A DNA stretch of 64,000 nucleotides from Ranitomeya imitator (Eukaryota). Shown here in pieces: positions 1,681-58,453 of this stretch. The translations under genes were made by a program, and so were the position numbers. The notes under the pieces were generated by a model. That model had not been told where the DNA came from. It searched no databases and worked only from the letters and a program-made list of their open reading frames with translations. The stretch spans positions 10,540,001 through 10,604,000 of the forward strand of contig NC_091285.1 of assembly GCF_032444005.1 (NCBI RefSeq), written 5' to 3'. The first letter of the stretch is position 1. The number at the start of each line of letters is the position of its first letter.

Positions 1681-1955
1681 GTTACCCCACCCCCATCATT
1701 GCCTTCTCCATCACTACACACAGACACCTTTCACTGTGCATCCTTGCAGCAACTGGCAGCTTCCACTCCCACGGCGCTGAATGGTGTCATCCAGCTGCAC
1801 CGCAGACTGCTCACGTCGCTGCAGCTGTGATACGCCACTGATAAAGACCTTTCTGTGTCTCCTGTGCCAGTCCGTGTCAGAGCGAGGAGCAATATCTGCT
1901 CCGATCCAACACAGCTATACACCTTGTACACACACGACTCCGCTCCATGCACCAT

Positions 1956-2493
1956 TGTTAAAAATCGTTATTGAGCAAAAATATCTAATCAAGACTTAAC
2001 CAGGTGCGTTATTCTTAAAAGAAAAATGTCATGATTTTCTGACGAAAGTATAGTGGTTTATTGAGTTATCCACCATCGCAGCAAAAACATAAAAGGTAGA
2101 TGAAACAATTACAAACAGAGTGTCCATGTGTAGATATCAGCGCTTCTCCTGTTACTCATCTTTCCAGGGTCCTGAATGGTAGAAGTCATCTGTCTGTGTG
2201 AAAGTCTGAAGTCATCATGGCATGGAGTAGCTAACAGCTGTTGTTCCTCGTGTCTTGTCCCATGTCCATGGAGAATGATGGTGAAGGAAGGGAGGTGACC
2301 GTCCCACGTGACAAAAAGCCCCCCACCCCCTCCTAAGAGACGTTTATATATGGTTTCTACACTGATCACGTGTCTTCTGTATATGGAGTTAACTTATACT
2401 CTGAGCTACATACACAGAAATAGCTTTTGATAGTGTCAGCAAGAAACCATGTGCTCGATACAGAATAAAAATAAGAATAATTAATATTTAACA
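1956..2493 (-). repeat. 3' LTR of the ERV-like element
   Basis: TG...CA ends. Minus-strand TATATAAA at 2350-2343 and AATAAA at 2062-2057. Preceded on the minus strand by a PPT. Confidence 0.92.
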
Positions 2494-5400
2494 ATTCCCC
2501 CTTTTGAGGGTGACAGACATTGATTGGAACCCTCAAATTAAAATATTAATAAAATCTTCTTTCTTCTTTGGCAAAATGATGTAATAAATAATATCAATAA
2601 TAATATTGTTATATGTTCTCAATGATATGTAAATTCATGTTATGGTAATTCATGTTATGGTAATTCATGTTATGGTAAGCCGTGACTAATATTCATATAA
2701 AATATATATTATACTTCCCTATATCTACTTGATGCATCTCAGGTCTGATGTCATCTGGTCTTCATATTGATGTCTTCTTGGTTCTTTTAAACAATTTTTA
2801 ATATAAGTCTTTTGAAATAGATGATAGCATGTAGATATGTAGAGACTGTGTGTCATGTGTCAATCAAAGTCCATAAAATCAAATGTTGATAAGAAAACAA
2901 AGTCCATAGATGAAATGTAGCTTTAATATCTGTGCAGTGTCACTTTTAGAGACCTGGACTTACATTGGCTCGCCTTGGAAATCATCTGGAATCCTCATAT
3001 CGTCCGCACTGGTCTTGGGACAGGTGTGACGTCTTTGGTCAGCACAGCAAGGGTTACATTGACTCTTCCTTGCCAAACATAGCACCATAACCAGTCCTTA
3101 GTGCACAGGACACATGTCAGGGTTGTAGCGTCCTGACAATTACCTGAGTGTTCACCAGCTTTCATGGAAGTCTTATAGGTGATAGGAAACCACTGGATCG
3201 TGATAAGAACGTAATAACACAGTTCATCTTTGATACTGTACTCAGTTGTCAGTGATGGATGCTGTAGTTGTGAATGGTGACATGAATTGTATTTGACACA
3301 GTCTATTATTACTCAGAAATCATAGCATTGTTACCTTGTGGAACTTCTGGATAACGGCTTTTCTTCTTGCAATTTTTAAGAATCAATTGAATTTAGAAAA
3401 ATGTAAAGTCTTTATTAACGTATCTCCGGTATCTTGATTGAAGTCTTCATTCCCTATTCTATACCAAATCTGGTTCTTTTCCCTAACTTATAACATCACA
3501 GCGTACCATAGCAATCAATAATATCCATATAATTATTAAATTATATTAATATGAAATTTATATTTAGAAAATAAAATAATAATAATAATAACAATAAATG
3601 ATATATTATTTACCATATTCTTCATGTGATTGGACATTTTTATGTCATAGGTGTAATTTCTTTTTGAACCCATAGATGTCAGTGTGTCTTTTATGTAACA
3701 AGTGCTGATATTTATTATTAAAACTTTATTAATTTATGTTCAGTAGACCAATAATATGTAAGTATGTATAGTCATGAACCAAAATAAGTATATATATGAA
3801 TAAATGAATGAATGAGTGAAAGAATTGTTGTATTTAACTCAGGAATTGAAACATTTCTTATATAATGAAACCATATGATCACTATATTTGATAAAGCAAT
3901 ATGCTTGTAGACATTACTCTATTAAATATTGATTTTTCCTTGATGAAAAATAAGAATGAAAAATAAAAATTGAAAGAAAAGTGGAAAAAAAATGAAAAAT
4001 AAAAATGAGAATAAAAAATAAAAATAAGGCCTTTATATGTTGATGACAAATGCTGAGATTATGTCTCAGTAACACATTCCCTTAATATTTTTGTAGATGT
4101 TGTCATAACCTTGGATTACCAAAATATTGAAATTATGCAACTTTGCATAGAATACCCTTCATAAGAGAAAAAAATGATATTTATAATATTTATTGTTATT
4201 GTACCCAATAATACCTTATTAATATTTCTTCTTTATTAAAATGTGTGAAGAAGAGGTATTGATGAAATGTGATGATGTGATCAGGATCAAAAACACATTT
4301 CCCCCTTAATATCAAAAAATATTATTTTATGAAAAAATTAATTTGTAAAAACCCAAGTGAAAAATAATTATTTTTATAACTGTCATATCAACTTGTGCCA
4401 TATATTTGTTTGAAGATGTATACTCATCTGTAAATATAAAAAAACACTGAAATATGAAAAAATTATCATTAGGAAAAAATGTTCTAAATGTAGGTTTCCT
4501 TGATAAACCATATTGATGTGTTATTGTACTTATTAAATAATAATAATAACTAAAGAAATATATGTTGCTTACATGTTGAATAATAATATTTAAATATATC
4601 TTAATATTCTAATAATTTAACTGGATCCTATTATTATTATTTTTTTTAAACACACAGTTGTTGGGTTTTTTTTCTGACATACCATAAATCATGAGGCCTC
4701 AGTCAAACTGTGCATACACATTCCACATTCCACGCTCTGGTCACTCTTACATCACATCTCATGTCAAGTTCACTCAGCAGCTGCTCATATGTTCTCTCAC
4801 CTGTCACATGTGACTCACATAGACGTTCACAATACATTTCACATACAAAGAATAAAAAACATGTATATTAACCCAAAATATTGTATCCTAATTATCAATA
4901 AATGCGCATTGTAATCTATTAAATTTAGTATTCTAATATTCCTTTGAATATTCCCCAAATATTATCTAACAGTATGTTTTAACCTATAGAAAGGACTCCT
5001 CCATTTACAAGAAACCCGAGTTGAATGTTCCAACGCTATTTCGGTACAGGAATCCATTTGAATGTATAGGCTGAGGAAAATTCCTAAAATTAAAAAACAA
5101 GGCTATATGATATTTCTTAACTCACATATGTCACACCATGCACCATGCAGTGGGAGGAAAAAAAAAAACATAATGTTACAGAAAAACATGTAGTACACAC
5201 ATTTTTAGGTTATTAGATATATTATTTTAAGTGTTAAATATATATATATATATATAAATCATGCAGTTAATATAACTTCCTGTGTGAATAAGACATAAAT
5301 TCATGAAACAGGTATTTTTTGTTCAATCCTCGCTTTGAAAGTAAAATTCTAAGGGAAATGAAAGATAAAGGTTAATTTCATATTTATTTCAAAACAAAAT

Positions 5401-5661
5401 AATTTAAATATCTTATACATATGTATATATTTAATAAATGTATTTAATTGTAATTCTAAATATTTTTTACTGGAGTATATTTTAATTATTTCACTATATA
5501 TATAAAAATGCAGTTAATATAATCTCTATTTATACAAATATGCTACAGTATTTACTGTATACTATATTAATATATATAACTGCAGAATTATATTGAAATA
5601 GAATAATTACATTTTAATAAATAATACATTGTATAACTCATCATATAATATAATTACATAT

Positions 5662-7035
5662 TTAGCCAATTCCTATCCCAAAATGTAACTCTCTGTCGAT
5701 TATCTGAAATGCTGTATTTAGTAAGGTCAGTTTTAACCCTATGGACTCTTTGAAGAGCTGCTGTGATAATGGAGTGTTCAGCTGAGCTCCCCCTGGGATA
5801 CTCACCTGCTTCCGTCTGTCAGTCTCCGCCATCTTTAGAGACAGATCTGAGCCTTCAGATTTTAAATCTTTCAGAGAAATTTCTTTAATAGACTCCTGAA
5901 TCTTTTCATAGGGTTTGTAGCAAATATGTAATTTTCTTCGTACTTCATAGATTTGATTTTGGATCAGTTTTGGAGATTTTGATTTTGGCTTTTGATAAGA
6001 TTGAATTCTGACTGGTTTCAAAAACTTAGTAAAATGTGTTTTCCTTTCAAGATTCTCGTGTTTTCTAGAAAAATCAAGGGATTGGGCGCATTCGTATAAA
6101 GAATTTTTCTGTGTAGCAATTATACGAGATACAGGATTTAAGAATTTAAACTTGTTTACAAAACAATTTATCATGGATTGTTGATTCAAATTCGTACAGA
6201 CCAATTTATAAATCCTTTCAAAAATGGCCATAAAAGTAAACGTACATTCTTCCTGGCCAATCTTCAATTTTAGAAGAATATCAAGATCTGGATAATTTTC
6301 TTTCAATCCACAGAAAATCAAAATTCTTAATCTTTCTACATCAGTCATATTTTCATACTCCTCATTCTGCATTTCTAATGAATATCTTCTCATAAAAGTT
6401 ACTGGCAGCCAAATTTTAAACAAATTATTTTTCTCCTGATTAGTCAAATCAAACTTATCAGCAAAACTTTCAAATATCTCTGAATTTCTGCACACATGGA
6501 TTTTGTCATCATATGCAGGAATGATTTTGCATAATTTTAGCAGGATTTTCCTAGATTTAGGTTGGAGTTGGGCCTCTGAGTCGTCTATTTTTAGTGGCAA
6601 TGGTACATCTGTCCCTCGTAGATCATCTTTGTCAATTGTCATGTCTCCTTCACTTCCTCCATCTTGTTTTTCATCTTGTGTCACAAAGTCAATGTCACTT
6701 TGGGTGGTCATCGTCATTACAGATACGTGCGTCACATCTTTCTCACTCTTCTCATTACAGTCAATCTTGGGAACATCATTAGTTTCCTTAGAAATTCTTT
6801 CTACACTGTCTTTTTTGGACTTCTCTATGACAAACTCGTTAAATACATAAACCATATGTAAAATATTTTTAAGTTGCTCTTTTTCTTTTTTCTTAGACAT
6901 TAGCTTACAATCTAAATTCAAATTCGCGGTTCTGCATTCTGAAAATAAATTAGACCAAAATATTTCTAAGCTAGATCCGTACAAACTTACAAATTCTATC
7001 TGACTTGATTTAGCATATGAATTTATCAAATCCAT
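5662..7035 (-). CDS. 457-aa ORF in the gag position of the LTR element (putative Gag/capsid-like protein)
   Basis: The only long ORF in the element. Starts about 300 nt after the PBS and 9 nt after a consensus donor AAG|GTAAGA. Has a predicted helical central region and a basic C-terminal part. No diagnostic motif recognised. Confidence 0.6.
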   Translation of the reverse strand: MDLINSYAKSSQIEFVSLYGSSLEIFWSNLFSECRTANLNLDCKLMSKKKEKEQLKNILHMVYVFNEFVIEKSKKDSVERISKETNDVPKIDCNEKSEKDVTHVSVMTMTTQSDIDFVTQDEKQDGGSEGDMTIDKDDLRGTDVPLPLKIDDSEAQLQPKSRKILLKLCKIIPAYDDKIHVCRNSEIFESFADKFDLTNQEKNNLFKIWLPVTFMRRYSLEMQNEEYENMTDVERLRILIFCGLKENYPDLDILLKLKIGQEECTFTFMAIFERIYKLVCTNLNQQSMINCFVNKFKFLNPVSRIIATQKNSLYECAQSLDFSRKHENLERKTHFTKFLKPVRIQSYQKPKSKSPKLIQNQIYEVRRKLHICYKPYEKIQESIKEISLKDLKSEGSDLSLKMAETDRRKQVSIPGGAQLNTPLSQQLFKESIGLKLTLLNTAFQIIDRELHFGIGIG

Positions 7036-7343
7036 TTGTCTTACCTTGAAATCTCAGCTTGTAATCCCTTTGCTTTTACAACGCTGGGCTCCGGACTTCA
7101 GCACGGCTATTTTTAGCACGTCTGTTCTTCAGCACTACCAGTGCTTGCTGTCAATCCGTACAACACCTGTTAGTCTCCGTCATTCGTAGGTTCTTGTGAG
7201 ATCTTTGTGACTTGAAATTTTGAAGTGGAATTCCTGAATACTTGCACAATCTAGCGGAACTCTTCTGTCTTCCCCCGTGTGCAAGAAGAAGGAAATTCAC
7301 GCAAAAATAGCACAAAAAATCAAAACTGGCTGGCTAGGCCAAA

Positions 7344-7881
7344 TGTTAAAAATCGTTATTGAGCAAAAATATCTAATCAAGACTTAACCAGGTGCGTTAT
7401 TCTTAAAAGAAAAATGTCATGATTTTCTGACGAAAGTATAGTGGTTTATTGAGTTATCCACCATCGCAGCAAAAACATAAAAGGTAGATGAAACAATTAC
7501 AAACAGAGTGTCCATGTGTAGATATCAGCGCTTCTCCTGTTACTCATCTTTCCAGGGTCCTGAATGGTAGAAGTCATCTGTCTGTGTGAAAGTCTGAAGT
7601 CATCATGGCATGGAGTAGCTAACAGCTGTTGTTCCTCGTGTCTTGTCCCATGTCCATGGAGAATGATGGTGAAGGAAGGGAGGTGACCGTCCCACGTGAC
7701 AAAAAGCCCCCCACCCCCTCCTAAGAGACGTTTATATATGGTTTCTACACTGATCACGTGTCTTCTGTATATGGAGTTAACTTATACTCTGAGCTACATA
7801 CACAGAAATAGCTTTTGATAGTGTCAGCAAGAAACCATGTGCTCGATACAGAATAAAAATAAGAATAATTAATATTTAACA
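7344..7881 (-). repeat. 5' LTR of the ERV-like element
   Basis: Identical to 1956-2493. Followed on the minus strand by TT and then the PBS. Confidence 0.92.
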
Positions 7882-9595
7882 ACCATGCACATGCGGCTCC
7901 GCTCCGTACACCTCGTACACACACGGCTCCGCTCCGTACACCTTATACACACGGCTCCTCCCCATACACCTCGTACACACACGGCTCCGCTCCGTACACC
8001 TTGTACACACACGCCTCCACTCTGTACACCTCGTACACACACAGCTCTGCTGCATACACCTCGTACACACACAGCTCTGCTGCATACACCTCGTACACAC
8101 ACGGCTCTGCTGCGTACACCTCGTACACACACGGCTCCGCTCCGTACACCTCGTACGCAGACAGCTTCGCTCCGTACACCTCGTACACACACAGCTCCGC
8201 TCCGTACACCTCGTACACACACGGCTCTGCTGCATACACCTCGTACACACACGGCTCCACTCCGTACACCTCATACACACAAGGCTCCGCTCCGTACACC
8301 TCATACATACATGGCTCATCTCCATACATCTTGTACACACACGCCTCCACTCCGTACACCTCGTACACACACAGCTCCGCTCCATACACATTGCACATGC
8401 TGCTCCGTATACCTTGCTCACACATGGCTCCGCTCTGTACACCTCATACACACGGCTCCTCTCCATACACCTCGTACACACATGGCTCTGCTCCACACAC
8501 ATTGCACACGCTGCTCTGCTCCGTATACCTTGTACACACATGGCTCTGCTCTGCACACCTCGTACACACGTGGCTCTGCTCTGTACACTTCGTACACAAG
8601 TGGCTCAGTTCCGTACACCTCGTACACACACGGCTCCGCTCCGTACACCTTGTACACACACGCCTCCACTCTGTACACCTCGTACACACACAGCTCTGCT
8701 GCATACACCTCGTACACACACAGCTCTGCTGCATACACCTCGTACACACACGGCTCTGCTGCGTACACCTCGTACACACACGGCTCTGCTGCGTACACCT
8801 CGTACACACACGGCTCTGCTGCGTACACCTCGTACACACACGGCTCCGCTCCGTACACCTCGTACACACACGGCTCCGCTCCGTACACCTCGTACACACA
8901 CGGCTCCGCTGCGTACAACTCGTACACAGACAGCTCTGCTCCGTACACCTCGTACACACACAGCTCCGCTCCGTACACCTCGTACACACACGGCTCCACT
9001 CCGTACACCTCGTACACACACGGCTCCGCTGCGTACACCTCGTACACAGACAGCTCCGCTCCGTACACCTCGTACACACACAGCTCCGCTCCATACATCT
9101 TGTACACACACGCCTCCACTCCGTACACCTCGTACACACACGGCTCTGCTCCATACACATTGCACATGCTGCTCCGTATACCTTGCTCACACACGGCTCC
9201 GCTCTGTACACCTCATACACACGGCTCCTCTCCATACACCTCGTACACACATGGCTCTGCTCTGCACACCTCGTACACACGTGGCTCTGCTCTGTACACT
9301 TCGTACACAAGTGGCTCAGTTCCGTACACCTCGTACACACACACGACTCTGCTCCATACACCTTTCACACTCTGCTCCGATCCGCACACCTCTTAAACAC
9401 ATGGCTCCGCTCCGTACACCTTGTACACACACGACTCTGCTCCATACACCTTTCACACTCTGCTCCGATCCGCACACCTCTTAAACACATGGCTCCGCTC
9501 CGTACACGTCTTACACACACGACTCTGCTCCATACACCTTTCACATGCTGCTCCGATCCATACACCTCATACACACACGGCTCTGCTACATCCAC
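7882..9595. repeat. 30-nt minisatellite (CACCTCGTACACACACGGCTCCGCTCCGTA), split by the LTR insertion
   Basis: Tandem units throughout. The first partial unit lies left of the LTR element at about 1915-1955. Source of the 300-530 aa repetitive ORFs. Confidence 0.95.
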
Positions 9596-9743: not shown

Positions 9744-10332
9744 AAGGTATTTACGACTATCATAGCTGCAGTGGAAAGTTGTGCTAGCCAAAACCGGTCT
9801 GATTCCCTTCTGAAAATGCAAGAAGTCCTTTGTTCCATTATTGTAAGATATTGGGCCAACGATTTAGGCTAGAAAAAGGAAAAGTACATATTAACATTCA
9901 TCAGCTTCTAACTCCATCAGGAAAAAAGTAGGGATTTCTCTGTAATTATGCATCACAAATAGGACATATTTGATCTCATTAGAATGCCAATGTTAATATG
10001 AGATGAATGCTGGGTTTGTTATGACTATGACATGTTCTGTAGCGAAGTTACAGGCATTAGACAAATTTAGGTTAAATTTAGTTAAACTGAAGAGATCGGA
10101 GGAATCAGAGAAATCCCTACTTTTTACCTGATGGAGTTAGAAGCTCATGTTTAGAGTGGCTGACAGAACCGCCGACGAATGTTAACAATATGTATTTTTC
10201 CTTTTTCTAGCCTAAATCGTTGGCCCAATATCTTACAATAATGGAACAAAGGACTTCTTGCATTTACAGAAGGGAATTAGACCGGTTTTGGCTGGCACAA
10301 CTTTCCACTGCAGCTATGCCAGTTGTAACCTT
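9744..10332. mobile_element. Foldback/MITE with long inverted arms
   Basis: 9761-9942 is the near-perfect reverse complement of 10106-10318. The right end runs into a Penelope fragment. Confidence 0.7.
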
Positions 10333-10794
10333 CAACGCAACAGAGGCGGCGGAAATTCTTTCCAAAGTTACCGCGCCCAGCGACTTTCTTCAGATTCCTG
10401 CCAAAGAACTCAAGAATCGCGACTTGGAACGCGAGTCTAGAAGAGCAGTTAGCTTAGAATTGCACATTATTACAATAGCTGAATACCTCCGTGTCCAGAG
10501 GATCCCACGGGGATTGCGGGTCCCCTTACAACCGACCTTCTTCAGGGAAGATAAAGACTATTGCACGAAGTTCGAACACATTCTAAACAAATGTTCCGCA
10601 GACCTTATGACTTTAACCCTTTCCTACCTTCAAAAGAACCTGGAGACGGTGAATGCCCAAATCAACGCGATCGAGAGCCAACTGACCAGTACCCTGCCTC
10701 AAGAAGAATTCCAGGAACTCAAGTCAAAGAATCAGGAATTATTACGGTCACACGGATTAGAATTGGAGAAGAGGAAAAGATCCAAATTCTTGAG
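10330..10794 (+). mobile_element. Truncated duplicate of the 5' part of the Penelope-like ORF
   Basis: Near-identical to about 12592-13060 (FNATEAAEILSKV...KRKRSKFLR). Confidence 0.9.
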
Positions 10795-13700
10795 AGAACC
10801 CCACGTTCTGAGCACTGGCCTTTCCTCACATGGTATAGTATTCACAATGCCATCTCGATGTAGAGTGTTATTCTTATCTCTACATAGCGCTCCAATGTGA
10901 CCACCGTTTCATGGACCTATATCTCTCTCTCTGACTCTCTGTATCATTACGCTGTTGGCCTGTTGTGCCTCCCTAGCACTCTGCTACTATCTGGCGCCTT
11001 GCCTGTTATCCCCTGCACTGCGATCCTGGCATTACACGGCCTCTTAGCTTCTTGTCCCCACTGTCTGGCACTCTATTCCTCTGCGCAGGCGCCGCCTCCC
11101 CTCGGCTCTCCTCCCCGGTCTTTCCCCTTGCTACGCGTGCGCGGTCCCGGCGGTCATGTGACCTGGTGACGCGGCACGTCAGCTGACCTTTAGGCGGCGG
11201 GCACTTAAACCCGGAAGTGCCGCTGCCTGTCAGCAGTCCCGGGAGTAACGCTACTCCAGCTGTCCGGTGCCGGTGCCAGTGGAGATCCCAGGTATAGCAG
11301 CGCCCTTCCCTGGCGACGTTTTCTCATTCCTTCTGCCCTCTCCTCCTCTCCTTATCCCTTTGCCATCTTATATTCCGTGCTGCCTAGTTACCTTTCTTCT
11401 GCCTTCTTTGTCCTCAGCGCTTTTGCTGTTGCGAGCTCCTCGCCCTCCTACAGCGCCCTGCTCCTGCATCTCCAGATTCTTCAAGGTAACCGCCGCAGCT
11501 CTATAGTGTACCCTCCTGCCTTAGGCCACTCGTCCTGGGTCTTACTTTTTATTATACCATTTTTACTCAGGCGCCCTATTCTCCCGGACTTTGCCGATTG
11601 TTGGCACCCCTGTGGGCCCACATTCACTCTTCGTGGCTTCCAGGTACTTCCAAGGGGGGCTTCTAGTTTTCTTTATTTTTCTATTCTTCTTTATTTCTCT
11701 TCTTTTTTTTTCTACATTTTTTCCTTCTTTTTCGTTTTTCTTTTCCTTTTCTTTGTCTTCAGATCTATGGCCATTCTGGTCTGTAGGTCTGATTCCCTTT
11801 CATACAGGCTCCTGGTGGTCACATACCTGGACTAGTCTCATCATATAGCACGCCCACCCGGGCCTCACGCCTAGCCGTCCTATACGATACCTGTTATATG
11901 GCATGTTGATGTGGTTCTACATGATCTGTTTTTGTGCTCATGTCTTTTGTTTCTATGTTATAGGCACTTCATCTCGCACCCTAGCCCTCTGACCCCGTAT
12001 ATTGGGAGGTCATCTCATTCGCAGTATCCTTCTTTTTTTAAGTGGGGGAGGCTATTTCGTAGCCCACTTTGTTATTCTTTTACTGGGACTTGAGGTCATC
12101 ATCTGATCATATTCCTCTCCTATACACGTTCACAGTCTGTAGCATCCCCTGAACGAGGCTCACGACTCACGGAACACCAGGCCGGATCCACCTAGTCCGC
12201 CACAGTCGTTGTGTGTCACTTCTCTTATGATGTATTTGTTTTTCTCAAGTATAGTGTATTATGTCTGGATTGAGACTGTGCATCATGTTACCTATCTTAA
12301 CAATATGTCTTTGTATTTTTACATATGTATTTCAGTAATCCAGTATCTATTTCTGATGAAGGTCTGTTCAGTAGACCGAAAACGTTTAAAATTGTGGATG
12401 CACCAAATAAACGAATTGTTCACTTTCTATCATGCAAAAAGATCTCCTGAGTGCCAAGTATTTATTGCTTTGATTTGACGGGTTGGAAACCCAACTTGCG
12501 CACGTCTAAGAAGCCAAGAGTGCCGTGCTTAATATTACTACATGCTCTATCCTTCCACGAGCACCTTGGATGATGTCGAGTGAGACCTTCTCCTTCAACG
12601 CAACAGAGGCGGCGGAAATTCTTTCCAAAGTTAGCGCGCCCAGCGACTTTCTTCAGATTCCTGCCAAAGAACTCAAGAATCGCGACTTGGAACGCGAGTC
12701 TAAAAGAGCAGTTAGCTTAGAATTGCACATTATTACAATAGCTGAATACCTCCGTGTCCAGAGGATCCCACGGGGATTGCGGGTCCCCTTACAACCGACC
12801 TTCTTCAGGGAAGATAAAGACTATTGCACGAAGTTCGAACACATTCTAAACAAATGTTCCGCAGACCTTATGACTTTAACCCTTTCCTACCTTCAAAAGA
12901 ACCTGGAGACGGTGAATGCCCAAATCAACGCGATCGAGAGCCAACTGACCAGTACCCTGCCTCAAGAAGAATTCCAGGAACTCAAGTCAAAGAATCAGGA
13001 ATTATTACGGTCACACAGATTAGAATTGGAGAAGAGGAAAAGATCCAAATTCTTGAGAGACACCGAGGACTACCTGCAGAACCGTGTCTACCAGTGGCGA
13101 GATACTCAGCATTCCACCAGGCGCCACAGCTCGCTAAGCTCTTCTGGTTCCATCGACAGCAGGCCCGGCACCTCAAATTCTTCTTCCTCCCATTCTTTTT
13201 TAGGGAACAACCGCAGCCGTCCAAAGGGAAGACGAGGCGGGGGGGGCCAATGCCGCCGGGGAACCCAGAAATCAGATGGCAACACGCTCACAGGTAAGGA
13301 CCTCCCGCTGGTAGTTAACATCTCTTCCAAAAACCTGGACACACATCAACTGGCTGTACTCCAGAAGGGTCTATCCTTTTGCCCTATGTATAAGTTCAAT
13401 TCATTTGAACTCAACATGGACCTGCAGAGGTTCTATCGCAACATTAGATTGCGTGTACACTTCTCAGAACAACCTGCCATACCAAGCTCTTCCGGGCAGG
13501 ATAAGACTCTTCTTGAACTCCGTGACTTGGGGTTACGGACTCCGAGCTCCTACATGCCACCACGGTCCAACCCACCAGTGGAAACCTTCGTTTCCCTTGT
13601 CGAGAGGGACATTCACACATTGACTCGGGAGATGGACCGAGGGAAGTTCCAGTTCCATACCAACCTCACACATTCAGAGAGACTTTCATTGGAGCAACTT

Positions 13701-15385
13701 TCATCGGATAAATCCTTAATTATCAAACCGGCAGATAAGGGCGGGGCGACGGTGGTTATGGACAGGTCTGACTATCTTGAGGAGGTGTTTAGACTGCTGG
13801 GGGACACCACAGTGTACAAAATAATACAACATAACCCTCTGAACCAGTTGATCAAAAAAATCGCACCCATCGTAGATTTCCACTATCAAGCAGGCACCAT
13901 TGATAGTAAATTGAGAGATTTTCTCATTAAAAGGGATCCTATTACCCCGATGTTTTATGTCCTGCCTAAAATACACAAAAGACTAGTTAAACCACCTGGC
14001 CGGCCTATTGTGTCCCTGACCGACTCTGTCTTGTCACCTTTGTCCATGGTATTGGAAAAAATTCTCACGCCGCTAGTTAAAACTACCCGCTCTTTCTTAT
14101 TGGATACCAATGATTTCATTCAGGTAATTAAATCTTTGGGCCCCATATCCCCTTCATCCCTCCTGATAACCTGGGATGTTAACAGCCTTTATACATCGAT
14201 AGTCCACGAGAAAGGCTTAGCAGCTACCGATAGACTCTTACATGACAACAAAGTAGATATTAAAATCCGTCATCTCTGTGCCGACCTATTGGGCCTGGTA
14301 CTCAAAGAAAATTATTTCTTGTTCCAGGACACATTCTATGCCCAACAACAAGGTACCGCAATGGGCGCTAACGTAGCGCCTCCTTACGCTGTAGCATATA
14401 TGGCAAATTTCGAACAGGATTTTGTGTATAATCATCCTCTGTTTATGAGTCACTATAAGGTTTGGCGGAGATATATCGACGATATATTCTGCATCTGGGA
14501 CGGTCCAATTGAATCGCTCCTGCCCTTTGACCAACACATCAATGGTATCTGGCCTGAATTAAAATTCTCGATACAACATGACACACACAGGATTAGCTTT
14601 TTGGATACTCTGATTTACAAGGAGAGGGGGGGTCACTTGGCAATCGATTTATACACAAAACCGACAGATCGCAATGGCCTCCTATTCTTCACCAGTTGCC
14701 ACCCTCCCTCCATTAAGAACTCTATTCCAAAATCGCAGTTTCATAGGGTCGATAGGATAGTCTCCGATGAAAATTTAAAAAAGACCAGACTCATCGAGAT
14801 GGAACACAAGTTTGCTGACAGGGGGTACCCTCAGGGGATACTGACGGAGGCTAAACGGAACATGTCAAATAGTAAAACCAGGGACAATCCCAAAAGAATC
14901 CCATTTGTCTCTACTTTTCACCCTTTCTCTGGCTTAGTACAGTCGACCATACGGAGGCACTGGAATATCATAACCAAGAGCTACCCTAATATTGCAGAGT
15001 TCAAATTGCCATTTCTGTCATGTTTCAAGCGAGCCAGGAACCTCAAGGATAGGTTAGTAAAGGCAGATGTTGGCCCAGGTACCCTGGTTCCCAAGCAGGT
15101 CTTTCTTCACACTCAGAGACGGGGCACATTCCCCTGCCTAAATTGTCTACAGTGCAGTAATGTACAAAAGGGTCCCTCTGTTTTTCACCCACAGACTGGT
15201 AAGGCCATTCCCATTAAGGGCTTCTACACCTGCGAGTCGACTTTTGTGGTCTATCTTATCAAATGCCCTTGCGGCTTGGCCTATGTGGGGGAGACCACAC
15301 AAACGGTGAGGGATAGGGTGGCCCAACATAAGTCTACGATCCGGTGTAATAAGACGCACCTCCCCCTTCCATTTCATTTTTCTGC
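10795..15385 (+). mobile_element. Penelope-like element (Neptune-type): pLTR/UTR region plus RT-GIY-YIG ORF, 3' truncated
   Basis: RT motifs KPADKGG, LPKIHK, GRPIVS, DVNSLYT, QGTAMG, YIDD. Linker CxxCxxC followed by VVYLIKCPCGLAYVGET (GIY-YIG). Hammerhead motif upstream at 12353. Confidence 0.9.
12347..12394 (+). ncRNA. Minimal type I hammerhead ribozyme motif
   Basis: CTGATGA (12353-12359), A, stem II GGTCT/gttcagt/AGACC, GAAA, short palindromic stem III (AACGTT), then TA. Stem I is weak (ATTT/AAAT). Confidence 0.7.
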
Positions 15386-15638
15386 AAAAACAAGGGTTTT
15401 ATCACCAAGTATTAAGTCTTGTTTGCCAGAGGGATCAAATACTTATTTCTCACTGCAAAATGCAAATAAATTTATAGAATTTATACAATGTGATTTTCTG
15501 GATTTTCTTTTTGATATTCTATATCTCAGTGTTAAAATTAAGCTACCCTTAAAATTAGACTGTTCATGTCTTTGTCAGTGGGCAAACTTACAAAATCAGC
15601 AAGGGGTCAAATACTTATTTCCCCCACTGCACCTGTGA
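12525..15638 (+). CDS. Reverse transcriptase / GIY-YIG endonuclease of a Penelope-like element; last ~84 aa read through into Tc1 DNA
   Basis: Uninterrupted 1037-aa ORF with all RT motifs. After HLPLPFHFS the sequence switches to a Tc1 terminus. The start codon is uncertain (native start probably MMSSETF at about 12570). Confidence 0.88.
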   Translation: MLNITTCSILPRAPWMMSSETFSFNATEAAEILSKVSAPSDFLQIPAKELKNRDLERESKRAVSLELHIITIAEYLRVQRIPRGLRVPLQPTFFREDKDYCTKFEHILNKCSADLMTLTLSYLQKNLETVNAQINAIESQLTSTLPQEEFQELKSKNQELLRSHRLELEKRKRSKFLRDTEDYLQNRVYQWRDTQHSTRRHSSLSSSGSIDSRPGTSNSSSSHSFLGNNRSRPKGRRGGGGQCRRGTQKSDGNTLTGKDLPLVVNISSKNLDTHQLAVLQKGLSFCPMYKFNSFELNMDLQRFYRNIRLRVHFSEQPAIPSSSGQDKTLLELRDLGLRTPSSYMPPRSNPPVETFVSLVERDIHTLTREMDRGKFQFHTNLTHSERLSLEQLSSDKSLIIKPADKGGATVVMDRSDYLEEVFRLLGDTTVYKIIQHNPLNQLIKKIAPIVDFHYQAGTIDSKLRDFLIKRDPITPMFYVLPKIHKRLVKPPGRPIVSLTDSVLSPLSMVLEKILTPLVKTTRSFLLDTNDFIQVIKSLGPISPSSLLITWDVNSLYTSIVHEKGLAATDRLLHDNKVDIKIRHLCADLLGLVLKENYFLFQDTFYAQQQGTAMGANVAPPYAVAYMANFEQDFVYNHPLFMSHYKVWRRYIDDIFCIWDGPIESLLPFDQHINGIWPELKFSIQHDTHRISFLDTLIYKERGGHLAIDLYTKPTDRNGLLFFTSCHPPSIKNSIPKSQFHRVDRIVSDENLKKTRLIEMEHKFADRGYPQGILTEAKRNMSNSKTRDNPKRIPFVSTFHPFSGLVQSTIRRHWNIITKSYPNIAEFKLPFLSCFKRARNLKDRLVKADVGPGTLVPKQVFLHTQRRGTFPCLNCLQCSNVQKGPSVFHPQTGKAIPIKGFYTCESTFVVYLIKCPCGLAYVGETTQTVRDRVAQHKSTIRCNKTHLPLPFHFSAKTRVLSPSIKSCLPEGSNTYFSLQNANKFIEFIQCDFLDFLFDILYLSVKIKLPLKLDCSCLCQWANLQNQQGVKYLFPPLHL
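15388..15630 (+). mobile_element. Right end of a Tc1-family transposon
   Basis: Ends CAAATACTTATTTCCCCCACTG, the reverse complement of the TIR type at 17413. Subterminal sequence resembles 18590-18815. Confidence 0.8.
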
Positions 15639-55600: not shown

Positions 55601-58453
55601 CACGGGGTGTTGTTTAACCCTCTGTTGTCCTCATTCTATTAGATCCAACCTAATGGGGACCAAGTTCACGGTGTACGATGATGGCGAGAACCCGACCAAG
55701 GTGCGGGGGTCACCAGAGGGCAGTGGCGTGCGGCAGGAGCTGGCAGCGGTCTGTTACGTAGGTGGAGTTCTAGGGTCCGGGGTGACGTCCCCCCTCGGGT
55801 CCGGTATTTACCTCCACTGTCCTCCCACAGGAGACCAATGTCCTGGGCTTTAAAGGGCCGAGGAAGATGTCCGTCCTGATACCGGGGATGAACATCAACC
55901 ACGAGCGCATCCCCTTCCAGCCACACAATGTGAGTTCTTAGGGTTTTATAGGAACAATTGTCGTGACAATATGGCAGCCAGAAACGGCGCCACCGTGGGC
56001 TGTGTTATGGTATTACAGCTCTGTGAATGAGCTCCGCGGACAAGATGGCGCCGTGTCTGCGCTCACTGAGGTCTCTGGTTTTTCAGGATTCAGAGAGTCT
56101 TCTTTCTCGGTGGCAAAGCAAACGCCAGGAGAACATCATCGAGCTGCACAACAAGGCCCCGGTGTGGAACGACGACACGCAGTCCTACGTGCTGAACTTC
56201 CACGGCCGCGTCACGCACGCCTCTGTCAAGAACTTCCAGATCGTACACGACAATGATCGTGAGTCTGTGGCCATCCTCCCCCTCTGGGCAGCCCCTCTCC
56301 TCTGCCCCCTCTCCTCTGCAGCCCACCTCGTCTTTTGTGCCGCCCTCCTACTCCTCCTTCTCTGTGCCTCTGTTCCATCCTCCTCCTTGCCATCATCCTC
56401 CTCCTCTGCGCTGCCTGCTCCTCCCCCTCCTGTGTCGACTTCCTCTGACCCACCCTTCTCCTCCTCCTCTGACCCGACCCGTCCTCCTCCTCCTCCTCCT
56501 CTAACCCGCCCTTCTCCTCTGACCAGCATTTCTCCTTGTCTTCATCTGACCCACCCTTCTCCTCCTCCTCTGACCTGCCCTTCTCCTCTGACCTGCCCTT
56601 CTCTTCTGACCCGCCCTTCTCTTCTGACCCGCCCTTCTCTTCTGACCCGCCCTTCTCTTCTGACCCGCCCTTCTCTTCTGACCCGCCCTTCTCTTCTGAC
56701 CCGCCCTTCTCTTCTGACCCACCCTTCTCTGATCCGCCCTTCTTCTCATCCTCCTCCTCTGACCCGCCCTTCTCATCCTCCTCCTCTGACCCGCCCTTCT
56801 CATCCTCCTCCTCTGACCCGCCCTTCTCCTCATCCTCCTCCTCTGACCCGCCCTTCTCATCCTCCTCCTCCGACCCGCCCTTCTCCCTATCCTCCTCCGC
56901 CGACCCGCCCTTCTCCTCATCCTCCTCCTCTGACCCGCCCTTCTCCTCATCCTCCTCCTCTGACCCGCCCTTCTCCTCATCCTCCTCTGACCCGCCCTTC
57001 TCCTCATCCTCCTCCTCCTCCTCTGACCCGCCCTTCTTCTCTTCATCCTCCTCAGACCCGCCCTTCTCCTCATCCTCCTCCTCTGACCCGCCCTTCTCAT
57101 CCTCCTCCTCTGACCCGCCCTTCTCCTCATCCTCCTCTGACCCGCCCTTCTCCTCATCCTCCTCCTCCTCTGACCCGCCCTTCTTCTCTTCATCCTCCTC
57201 AGACCCGCCCTTCTCCTCCTCCTCTGACCCGCCCTTCTCTTCATCCTCCTCCTCTGACCCGCCGTTCTTCTCCTCCTCATCCTCCTCCTCTGACCCGCCG
57301 TTCTTCTCCTCATCCTCCTCCTCTGACCCGCCCTTCTTCTCCTCATCCTCCTCCTCTGACCCGCCCTTCTCCTCCTCATCCTCCTTCTCTGACCCGCCGT
57401 TCTTCTTCTCCTCATCCTCCTCCTCTGACCCGCCGTTCTTCTCCTCATCCTCCTCCTCTGACCCGCCGTTCTTCTCCTCATCCTCCTCCTCTGACCCGCC
57501 GTTCTTCTCCTCATCCTCCTCCTCTGACCCGCCGTTCTTCTCCTCATCCTCCTCCTCTGACCCGCCGTTCTTCTCCTCATCCTCCTCCTGACCCGCCGTT
57601 CTTCTCCTCCTCCTCCTCTGACCCGCCCTTCTTCTCTTCATCCTCCTCAGACCCGCCCTTCTCTTCATCCTCCTCCTCTGACCCAACGTTCTTCTCCTCA
57701 TCCTCCTCCTCTGACCCGCCCTTCTCATCCTCCTCCTCTGACCCAACGTTCTTCTCCTCCTCATCCTCCTCCTCTGACCCGCCGTTCTTCTCCTCATCCT
57801 CCTCCTCTGACCCGCCCTTCTCCTCCTCATCCTCCTTCTCTGACCCGCCCTTATCCTCCTCTGACCCGCCCTTCTCTTCATCCTCCTCCTCTGACCCGCC
57901 CTTCTCTTCATCCTCCTCCTCTGACCTGCCCTTCTCCTCATCCTCCTCCTCTGACCCGCCCTTCTCCTCATCCTCCTCCTCTGACCCGCCCTTCTCCTCA
58001 TCCTCCTCCTCTGGCCCGCCCTTCTTCTCCTCATCCTCCTCCTCTGGCCCACCCTTCTTCTCCTCATCCTCCTCCTCTGACCCGCCCTTCTTCTCTTCAT
58101 CCTCCTCCTCTGACCCGCCCTTCTTCTCCTCATCCTCCTCCTCTGACCCGCCCTTCTCCTCCTCATCCTCCTCCTCTGGCCCGCCCTTCTCCTCATCCTC
58201 CTCTGACCCGCCCTTCTCATCCTCCTCCTCTGACCCGCCCTTCTCCTCCTCATCCTCCTCCTCTGACCCGCCCTTCTCATCCTCCTCCTCCTCTGACCCG
58301 CCCTTCTCTCTGTTTCCAGCCGAGTACATCGTCATGCAGTTTGGCCGGGTGGCAGACGACCTCTTCACCCTGGACTACAGCTACCCGCTCTGCGCCCTGC
58401 AGGCTTTCTCCGTGGCGCTCTCTAGTTTTGACAGCAAGTTGGCGTGTGAGTGA
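49631..58453 (+). CDS. TULP3: Tubby-like protein 3 (11 exons, 519 aa)
   Basis: Exons 49631-49665, 52020-52071, 54113-54281, 54525-54902, 54984-55078, 55156-55353, 55450-55562, 55643-55757, 55831-55929, 56087-56258, 58320-58453; all GT-AG, 1560 nt in frame. N-terminal [23 protein letters not shown] and tubby domain ending [16 protein letters not shown]3 is preferred over TUB from FOXM1-RHNO1 synteny. Confidence 0.9.
49680..51980. repeat. C-rich minisatellite (ATACAGAGACCCCCATCATCCCCCTA) filling TULP3 intron 1
   Basis: 25-29-nt tandem units across about 2.3 kb. Confidence 0.95.
52130..52960. repeat. 39-nt G/T-rich minisatellite in TULP3 intron 2
   Basis: GGTATGGTTAGTTGTGGGGTGCGGGTATGGTTGGGTGCA units. 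Confidence 0.95.
52965..54110. repeat. Polypyrimidine minisatellite (CTCTGCTCTCCTGA / CTGCTTCCCTTTCT) in TULP3 intron 2
   Basis: 14-nt modules running up to the exon 3 acceptor. Confidence 0.93.
56330..58310. repeat. Polypyrimidine minisatellite (CCTCCTCCTCTGACCCGCCCTTCTCCTCAT) in TULP3 intron 10
   Basis: About 2 kb of variable 18-36-nt units. Confidence 0.95.

Follow-up and report, generated by a model that had tools for sequence, protein, structure and literature searches.

How does a retroelement without a polymerase of its own come to leave a fresh copy of itself in a genome? The question is raised by a 64,000-nucleotide stretch of the genome of the frog Ranitomeya imitator (NC_091285.1, positions 10,540,001 to 10,604,000, forward strand; from here on, the window), in which an element of 5,926 bp, with a long terminal repeat (LTR) at either end and one long open reading frame (ORF), runs on the minus strand from 7881 to 1956. 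An earlier note on this DNA had called it a very young, pol-less element of endogenous retrovirus (ERV) type that relies on a helper for Pol. The explanation that we consider probable is that it is a very recent gag-only LTR insertion, which encodes its own capsid-fold Gag and likely borrowed its protease (PR), reverse transcriptase (RT) and integrase (IN) from a co-resident gag-pol-env ERV resembling the snakehead retrovirus (SnRV). The features of the element and its edges are, in window coordinates:

1951..1955, no strand: target-site duplication ACCAT, left copy, a direct repeat flanking the LTRs
1956..2493, minus strand: 3' LTR, 538 bp, identical to the 5' LTR, with AATAAA at 2057-2062
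2495..2505, minus strand: polypurine tract AAAAGGGGGAA, ending 1 nt before the 3' LTR, the same in family copies
2995..3312, minus strand: open frame of 105 codons in the 3' region, matched by no Pfam family at cut-off
5349..5350, minus strand: splice acceptor AG, preceded by a pyrimidine tract, seen as a contig junction, motif kept in 39 of 50 copies
5662..7035, minus strand: gag ORF, 457 aa, ATG at 7035, from the ORF list, fold and selection
6004..6588, minus strand: capsid domain, about residues 150-344, from the predicted model compared with known capsids
7043..7044, minus strand: splice donor GT (AAG/GTAAG), 9 nt before the gag ATG, motif kept in 48 of 50 copies
7226..7325, minus strand: leader after the primer-binding site, homologous to the helper leader by local alignment, candidate packaging signal
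7326..7341, minus strand: primer-binding site (PBS) TGGCCTAGCCAGCCAG, its start 2 nt past the 5' LTR, complementary, though imperfectly, to host tRNA-Arg(ACG)
7344..7881, minus strand: 5' LTR, 538 bp, identical to the 3' LTR, with a TATA-like box at about 7733-7738
7882..7886, no strand: target-site duplication ACCAT, right copy, at the edge of a minisatellite

The youth claimed by the earlier note is borne out by the LTRs, which have TG...CA ends and align with 0 differences, while its clean 5-bp target-site duplication, its polypurine tract and its donor site ahead of the only 457-aa ORF are present as described. The absence of RT, IN and Env also stands, since tblastn with the Pol and Env of the helper family introduced below returns no match in the element (best E ~8). 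An Rfam search gave 0 families, and the start and length of the 105-codon 3' frame vary among copies, which makes it improbable that this frame is a gene. The minisatellite adjoining the element has a 30-bp unit and spans 7894-9587.

The element is a freshly inserted copy of a frog retroelement family of several hundred copies. Its exact LTR-primer junction occurs 276 times in the genome and 0 times for a reversed control, hence chance can be ruled out; this count, which supplies the copy number that the earlier note had suggested checking, is a lower bound on copies, variant primer sites not being counted. Genome searches gave 1,710 candidates for the LTR and 1,036 for the ORF, and an open frame of ~460 codons is found in most of the best 150 scored ORF matches. 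The 20 best family copies fetched are all colinear with the element (3.5-7.5 kb) and have LTR pairs 98.4-100% identical, in keeping with the youth of the window copy. Among 50 copies examined, 34 of the 35 with both ends show a perfect 5-bp duplication, and none of these fetched copies has a helper-type pol or env, which agrees with the non-autonomous status proposed earlier; three weak pol matches (~30% identity) lie in flanks or on the opposite strand. Seven large internal deletions in family copies do not coincide with splice sites. One copy, with LTRs 99.4% identical, holds a 1.6-kb insert (L006:3098-4700) with terminal inverted repeats and a transposase-like frame, presumably of Tc1 type.

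The ORF is, according to its predicted structure, a capsid-fold Gag. A Pfam search with it gave 0 families and a PDB profile search 0 matches, the closest named protein, 99% identical, is labelled Ranitomeya imitator, and a profile search over 1.84 billion representatives returned 44 matches, every named one from frogs, with relatives in Bufo, Spea, Hyperolius and X. tropicalis automatically named 'posterior protein-like'. The AlphaFold2 model (28 sequences) has a confident helical core, and the protein is laid out as an N-terminal helical domain, a disordered linker, the capsid domain and a basic C-terminal region. The model aligns with the capsid (CA) of murine leukemia virus (MLV) over 180 residues (Z 8.2, root-mean-square deviation 6.2) and with the C-terminal domain of Copia CA over 81 residues (Z 9.6, deviation 2.1); PEG10 and Arc also align, and the Z values are middling for a helical protein, though the match list is uniform, its top 24 rows being all capsid-fold proteins. 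Foldseek alone is weak (best MLV CA, E 0.009), and the best BFVD match is Gag-Pol of walleye dermal sarcoma virus (WDSV, E 9e-5), a SnRV row being absent from the results. The predicted fold upholds the retroviral character that the earlier note had assigned to the element. Directly after the capsid lies a basic stretch, and the CCHC knuckle, present in many of the 44 profile matches, is missing from the element Gag and from its six closest relatives.

This coding capacity is under purifying selection among copies. Of 33 copies selected solely on their LTR or primer site, 25 keep at least 445 codons, and the ratio of nonsynonymous to synonymous rates (dN/dS) is 0.40 (codon bootstrap 0.30-0.53) over 26 sequences not picked by ORF, the pairs not being independent. 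Moreover, 21 of 30 distinct indels in the ORF are in frame, as compared with 72 of 326 in non-coding sequence (p=1.6e-7).

A candidate helper family was found by a genome search with a distant Gag. It has a gag-stop-pol-env layout, Pfam assigns to its Pol a PR, an RT, two RNase H domains, one of them of tether type, and an IN, and five copies have LTR pairs 98.6-100% identical, four of them with a 5-bp duplication. Among the best 150 scored of 149,468 candidates, no other close RT lineage has long open frames. Its Gag, which carries the CCHC, is 31% identical to that of the element over residues 1-325 (E 1e-44). Element and helper align over the 100 nt that follow the primer site, with a score of 62.5, a value that 0 of 2000 shuffles reach (shuffle maximum 38.5); both have a donor-like site just upstream of the gag ATG, and their purine tracts are similar. 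Hairpins in the leader have no folding advantage over shuffled sequence (z -0.2 and -0.35), hence no leader structure is claimed. A partner bearing the LTRs of the element, of the kind that the checks in the earlier note look for, is not what this family turned out to be: its LTR shows no similarity to that of the element above shuffles beyond the TGT...ACA ends, the acceptor region and the 3' untranslated region likewise show no homology above shuffles, and the common part is the leader only.

The third ORF of the helper, an env-like 884-codon frame (L031:6739-9393, plus strand), has signal-like and transmembrane-like stretches and an RSKR, as read from its sequence, and its residues 250-347 give a weak immunoglobulin-domain match (Ig_2, E 2e-4, below cut-off). 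Degraded members of the helper family are numerous and clustered at ~235-390 Mb of chromosome-level contig G000:C2. An abundant 210-bp tandem repeat carrying a ...AACA-TGGCGAG motif (e.g. G000 C1:283.289-283.290 Mb) overwhelmed the attempt to count helper copies by pattern.

Concerning the lineage of the helper, an RT tree of 48 rows (the helper plus 47 of 96 matches, with Gypsy-type rows thinned by three and no named reference virus) places it in a vertebrate retrovirus-type clade apart from the Gypsy-type rows, with support 1.0, and its best PDB matches are the MLV and foamy RTs, ahead of Ty3. Counted by eye against the alignment in the supplement of PMC7947760 (two segments, 107 columns), the helper RT shares 59 identities with SnRV, 49 with Xen-1 and 44 with Loki-Lch, and the second segment alone (54 columns) gives SnRV 35, WDSV 28, Xen-1 27, HERV-L 23 and Loki-Lch 22. 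Its motifs LPQG, FHQAL and LQYVDD are as in SnRV, whereas Loki has CPFG, FNIFLHKA and IYVDD, and on these motifs an initial assignment to the lokiretroviruses was dropped. The third ORF gives no PF00523 fusion-glycoprotein match at E 0.1; the published similarity of the lokiretrovirus Env of Wang and Han to PF00523 is itself weak. An ordinary Gypsy or BEL pol, which the earlier note had named as the outcome that would contradict it, was rejected for this partner, because its RT stands apart from Gypsy and reads closest to SnRV; it also has two RNase H-type domains. Judged by its sequence, the helper is likely SnRV-like.

Host tRNA-Arg(ACG) genes are confirmed (8 pattern matches, 4 loci scanned), with the 3' complement TGGCGAGCCAGCCAGGAG, against which the PBS of the element matches over 4 nt, then has a 2-for-1 mismatch, 10 matching nt and finally 3 mismatches. 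The tRNA-Arg(ACG) type proposed in the earlier note is hence right, the match being only imperfect, and the usual primer sites are imperfect in both the element family and the helper. SnRV itself reportedly primes on tRNA-Arg. At eleven places in the genome a perfect 15-nt site follows an LTR-like end: seven of them are young copies of the family and two are old ones, and the remaining two are a chimera and an unrelated locus. Among family copies, tRNA-perfect sites amount to ~9 in 285. In the gag tree, six of the young perfect-site copies, with intact ORFs, are spread over no fewer than five separate branches, where for the most part they neighbour ordinary copies, with mixed support. That two-for-one corrections to the exact tRNA sequence recur in this way is best accounted for by copying of the primer. 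Low inheritance of the primer sequence and selection against perfect sites both fit their scarcity: the accessible text of PMC7472051 gives tRNA-primer inheritance as 50:50 in retroviruses and none in Ty1/Ty3, and describes ETn/MusD primer sites as mostly mismatched, which it attributes to escape from tRNA fragments. A second perfect-PBS match, L041, was set aside as unrelated to the element family or the helper. At another locus (L071, G000:C5:565.349 Mb) a perfect 18-nt tRNA-Arg(ACG) complement follows a ...AACAG end unrelated to both families, with no Gag or Pol match nearby.

The chimera, L035, joins a family LTR (81% identical to the window copy) and a full 18-nt tRNA complement to a helper gag-pol (94.8%), the join lying at CCAGGAG of the helper leader, and it ends in an inverted family LTR plus 3' end. 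Its perfect 18-nt tRNA copy matches the usual site of neither parent family; among 23 other loci with the LTRs nearest to it, a primer site is present in two, both imperfect. L035 is likely a product of co-packaging, and mis-annealing of plus-strand strong-stop DNA on helper DNA in a shared particle would account for it.

The intron between donor and acceptor (7044-5349) contains all of gag. Sequence words of the element were sampled in sequencing runs, all of them contigs, and more than half of the sampled words are present in 14 runs from five studies; the junction was checked in six. Run X2 shows the junction 7045/5348 from either side, the shorter arms being 17 and 11 nt, with canonical GT-AG ends, several contigs in runs X2 and X11, from two studies, start exactly at 7045, and runs X8 and X9 show no such junction. 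No run is recorded as RNA, and the contigs are hence not put forward as proof of expression. Both splice motifs are kept among family copies at the frequencies listed above, and no 3' ORF is conserved among the 50 copies; hence the spliced accessory ORFs of SnRV type, invoked in the earlier note, found no conserved counterpart in the element. Because it removes all of gag and leaves no conserved 3' ORF, the splice is likely a relic of env splicing or a means to limit Gag.

We infer that the element family uses the enzymes of the helper, in a series of steps that would run as follows. The LTR would drive a full-length RNA and a spliced RNA without gag (the splice is seen in contigs, their RNA status being a guess). 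The full-length RNA would make Gag, which most likely packages its own RNA in cis, and the shared leader, judging from its homology and the one chimera, may admit this RNA to particles with helper Gag-Pol. Helper RT would then prime on host tRNA-Arg(ACG), as the tRNA-perfect sites in scattered copies strongly suggest, and helper IN would insert the DNA with a 5-bp duplication, a length common to both families.

Several points weigh against this course of events. A Gag identity of 31% is low for co-assembly, the two LTRs are unrelated, and mixed element-helper particles remain inferred. L035 is a single, older and rearranged locus with an inverted LTR, and could in part be the outcome of genomic recombination. 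The SnRV placement comes from a hand count, reference viruses being absent from the RT tree; the runs are all contigs whose RNA origin is a guess, and with 150 of 149,468 RT candidates scored another donor could exist. The last point feeds an explanation that we consider unlikely, in which the source of Pol is either some other retroelement or a rare autonomous relative that has the LTRs of the family and is polymorphic or missing from the assembly. It gains from the lack of LTR similarity and from genome searches in which only top candidates are scored, and the accessible text of PMC12067270 offers the same idea for the zebrafish element Bik-1; against it, 0 of 50 family copies have a helper-type pol between their LTRs, the only locus found with a family LTR and pol carries the helper pol (94.8% identity), and the leader is conserved between element family and helper.

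A different proposal, which we find improbable, is that Gag is kept mainly for host use, either in a developmental role like that of Bik-1 or Xpo or as a dominant-negative restriction of the helper, with mobilization independent of Gag. Low dN/dS and in-frame indels span many dispersed subfamilies, so selection during replication fits better than selection on fixed loci, although host and replication roles are not exclusive. The loss of the CCHC knuckle and the presence of element stretches in contigs of the 14 runs would suit host use, as would the posterior-ventralizing activity of Xretpos (PMC4585706, accessible text). That the element belongs to the lokiretrovirus/BHIKHARI or to a Gypsy/BEL lineage instead of the SnRV clade is very improbable in view of the SnRV-type RT motifs and identity counts of the helper, its RT clade apart from Gypsy and the missing fusion-glycoprotein Pfam match in its third ORF, even though the gag-only layout is the same as in BHIKHARI and Atlas look-alikes, to be taken as a lead only, are Retrotrans_gag/DUF1759 clusters (0.88-0.90). 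The borrowing of enzymes from the SnRV-like helper thus stays our preferred explanation.

Gag-only hitch-hikers are a known kind of element. What is new here is the CCHC-less Gag under selection, together with a candidate helper that is divergent and SnRV-like, the chimera, and the corrections seen at primer sites. Xpo, the 'posterior protein', is linked to the Xretpos/1A11 group, and a CCHC zinc knuckle in Gag is a feature of the Xretpos/1A11/Xpo group. The 'posterior protein-like' relatives bear the CCHC, unlike the element Gag, and are connected to it through profile matches to automatically named proteins. In mammals, MaLR/ERV-L form a pair of non-autonomous element and helper, and ETn is non-coding, with LTRs common with MusD. 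The present family resembles ETn/MusD in pairing a non-autonomous element with a helper, in its mismatched commonest PBS and in its scattered perfect revertants (PMC7472051), and differs from it in that element and helper LTRs are unrelated and the element Gag is kept under selection. The Xenopus elements Xretpos, lambda-olt 2-1 and 1A11 are described in the accessible text of PMC4585706 as LTR elements that bear a Gag-like ORF but lack pol, for which an arginine-tRNA primer was suggested in the case of Xretpos; Xretpos and 1A11 thus resemble our element by description, but they are judged there unable to transpose, in contrast to a family with hundreds of young copies and a candidate helper. 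The zebrafish BHIKHARI elements, Bik-1 and Bik-2, are gag-only, recently mobile ERVs with no partner found, and are similar in needing a partner for Pol and in having an N-terminal coiled coil plus capsid, but they are described as lokiretrovirus relatives (PMC12067270, accessible text), whereas the candidate partner here reads SnRV-like. The 'poorly characterised amphibian retroviral lineage' of the earlier note was right in being retroviral, the kind itself being already known from these papers.

SnRV-like ERVs have been reported in frogs, and the SnRV clade (clade Huo) includes ERVs in amphibians (PMC12193657 and PMC6001957, and for frogs also PMC4131045, all from their accessible text). 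The helper is similar to that clade in its RT by hand count and differs in the weak Ig-like match of its third ORF, while the element lacks pol, env and any conserved accessory ORF. Within the literature covered, subscription papers and Repbase lying outside it, no description of the element family or of a helper for Xretpos-type elements was found, and the accessible parts of PMC12690878 and of bioRxiv 2024.07.05.601823 (preprint without supplements) make no mention of SnRV or Ranitomeya.

A capsid-domain tree of 27 Gags bears on the age of the lineage. The CCHC-less clade unites Leptodactylus, Dendropsophus, Anomaloglossus, Phyllobates, Dendrobates, one further protein and the element (UFBoot 86, inner nodes 59-97), and its sister group consists of the Gags of the helper, Bufo and Hyperolius (joint support 100); its branching order roughly follows host relationships. 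A tentative view, which we put forward as possible and somewhat short of probable, is that the family is an old, vertically inherited satellite of a SnRV-clade retrovirus, with its own capsid under selection and the zinc knuckle replaced by a conserved basic motif, which would parasitize a 31%-identical helper via the shared leader and would rarely inherit the tRNA primer sequence, in this respect more like Ty1/Ty3 than a standard retrovirus.

Elsewhere in the genome, an open CCHC-less Gag-like ORF of 469 aa (L021:7287-8762, minus strand; G000:C10:14.897-14.899 Mb) is the sole one of its type among 112 scored matches, and neither of the 10-kb stretches examined there, which adjoin each other, shows an LTR pair. 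Its identity is 47-58% to proteins of Mantella, Hyperolius and two further records, which make up a clade of their own (UFBoot 99), and it is a candidate domesticated gag gene of frogs. In the window itself, a 1,042-codon open frame (12510-15638, plus strand) gives a weak RT match (RVT_1, E 1e-4) and has a 99% direct repeat (10329-10628 and 12592-12891) ahead of it; it is probably another young retroelement. An exon of a Tubby-family host gene (Tub, E 5e-23) lies at 56027-56300 on the plus strand.

The source of Pol for BHIKHARI, Xretpos and 1A11 is treated differently in two papers, immobility being assumed in one account (PMC4585706) and an unseen partner posited in another (PMC12067270), as far as their accessible text goes. 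Here, a satellite and its candidate helper are both young and reside in one genome, with a chimera left behind, which makes testable now the use of a divergent helper by a gag-only satellite, the reason for keeping its own capsid and the persistence of an imperfect primer site, and which ties the 'posterior protein-like' Gag family of frogs to the little-studied SnRV clade. If the view of an old satellite is true, it would also explain the movement of pol-less elements of the Xretpos/Xpo type.

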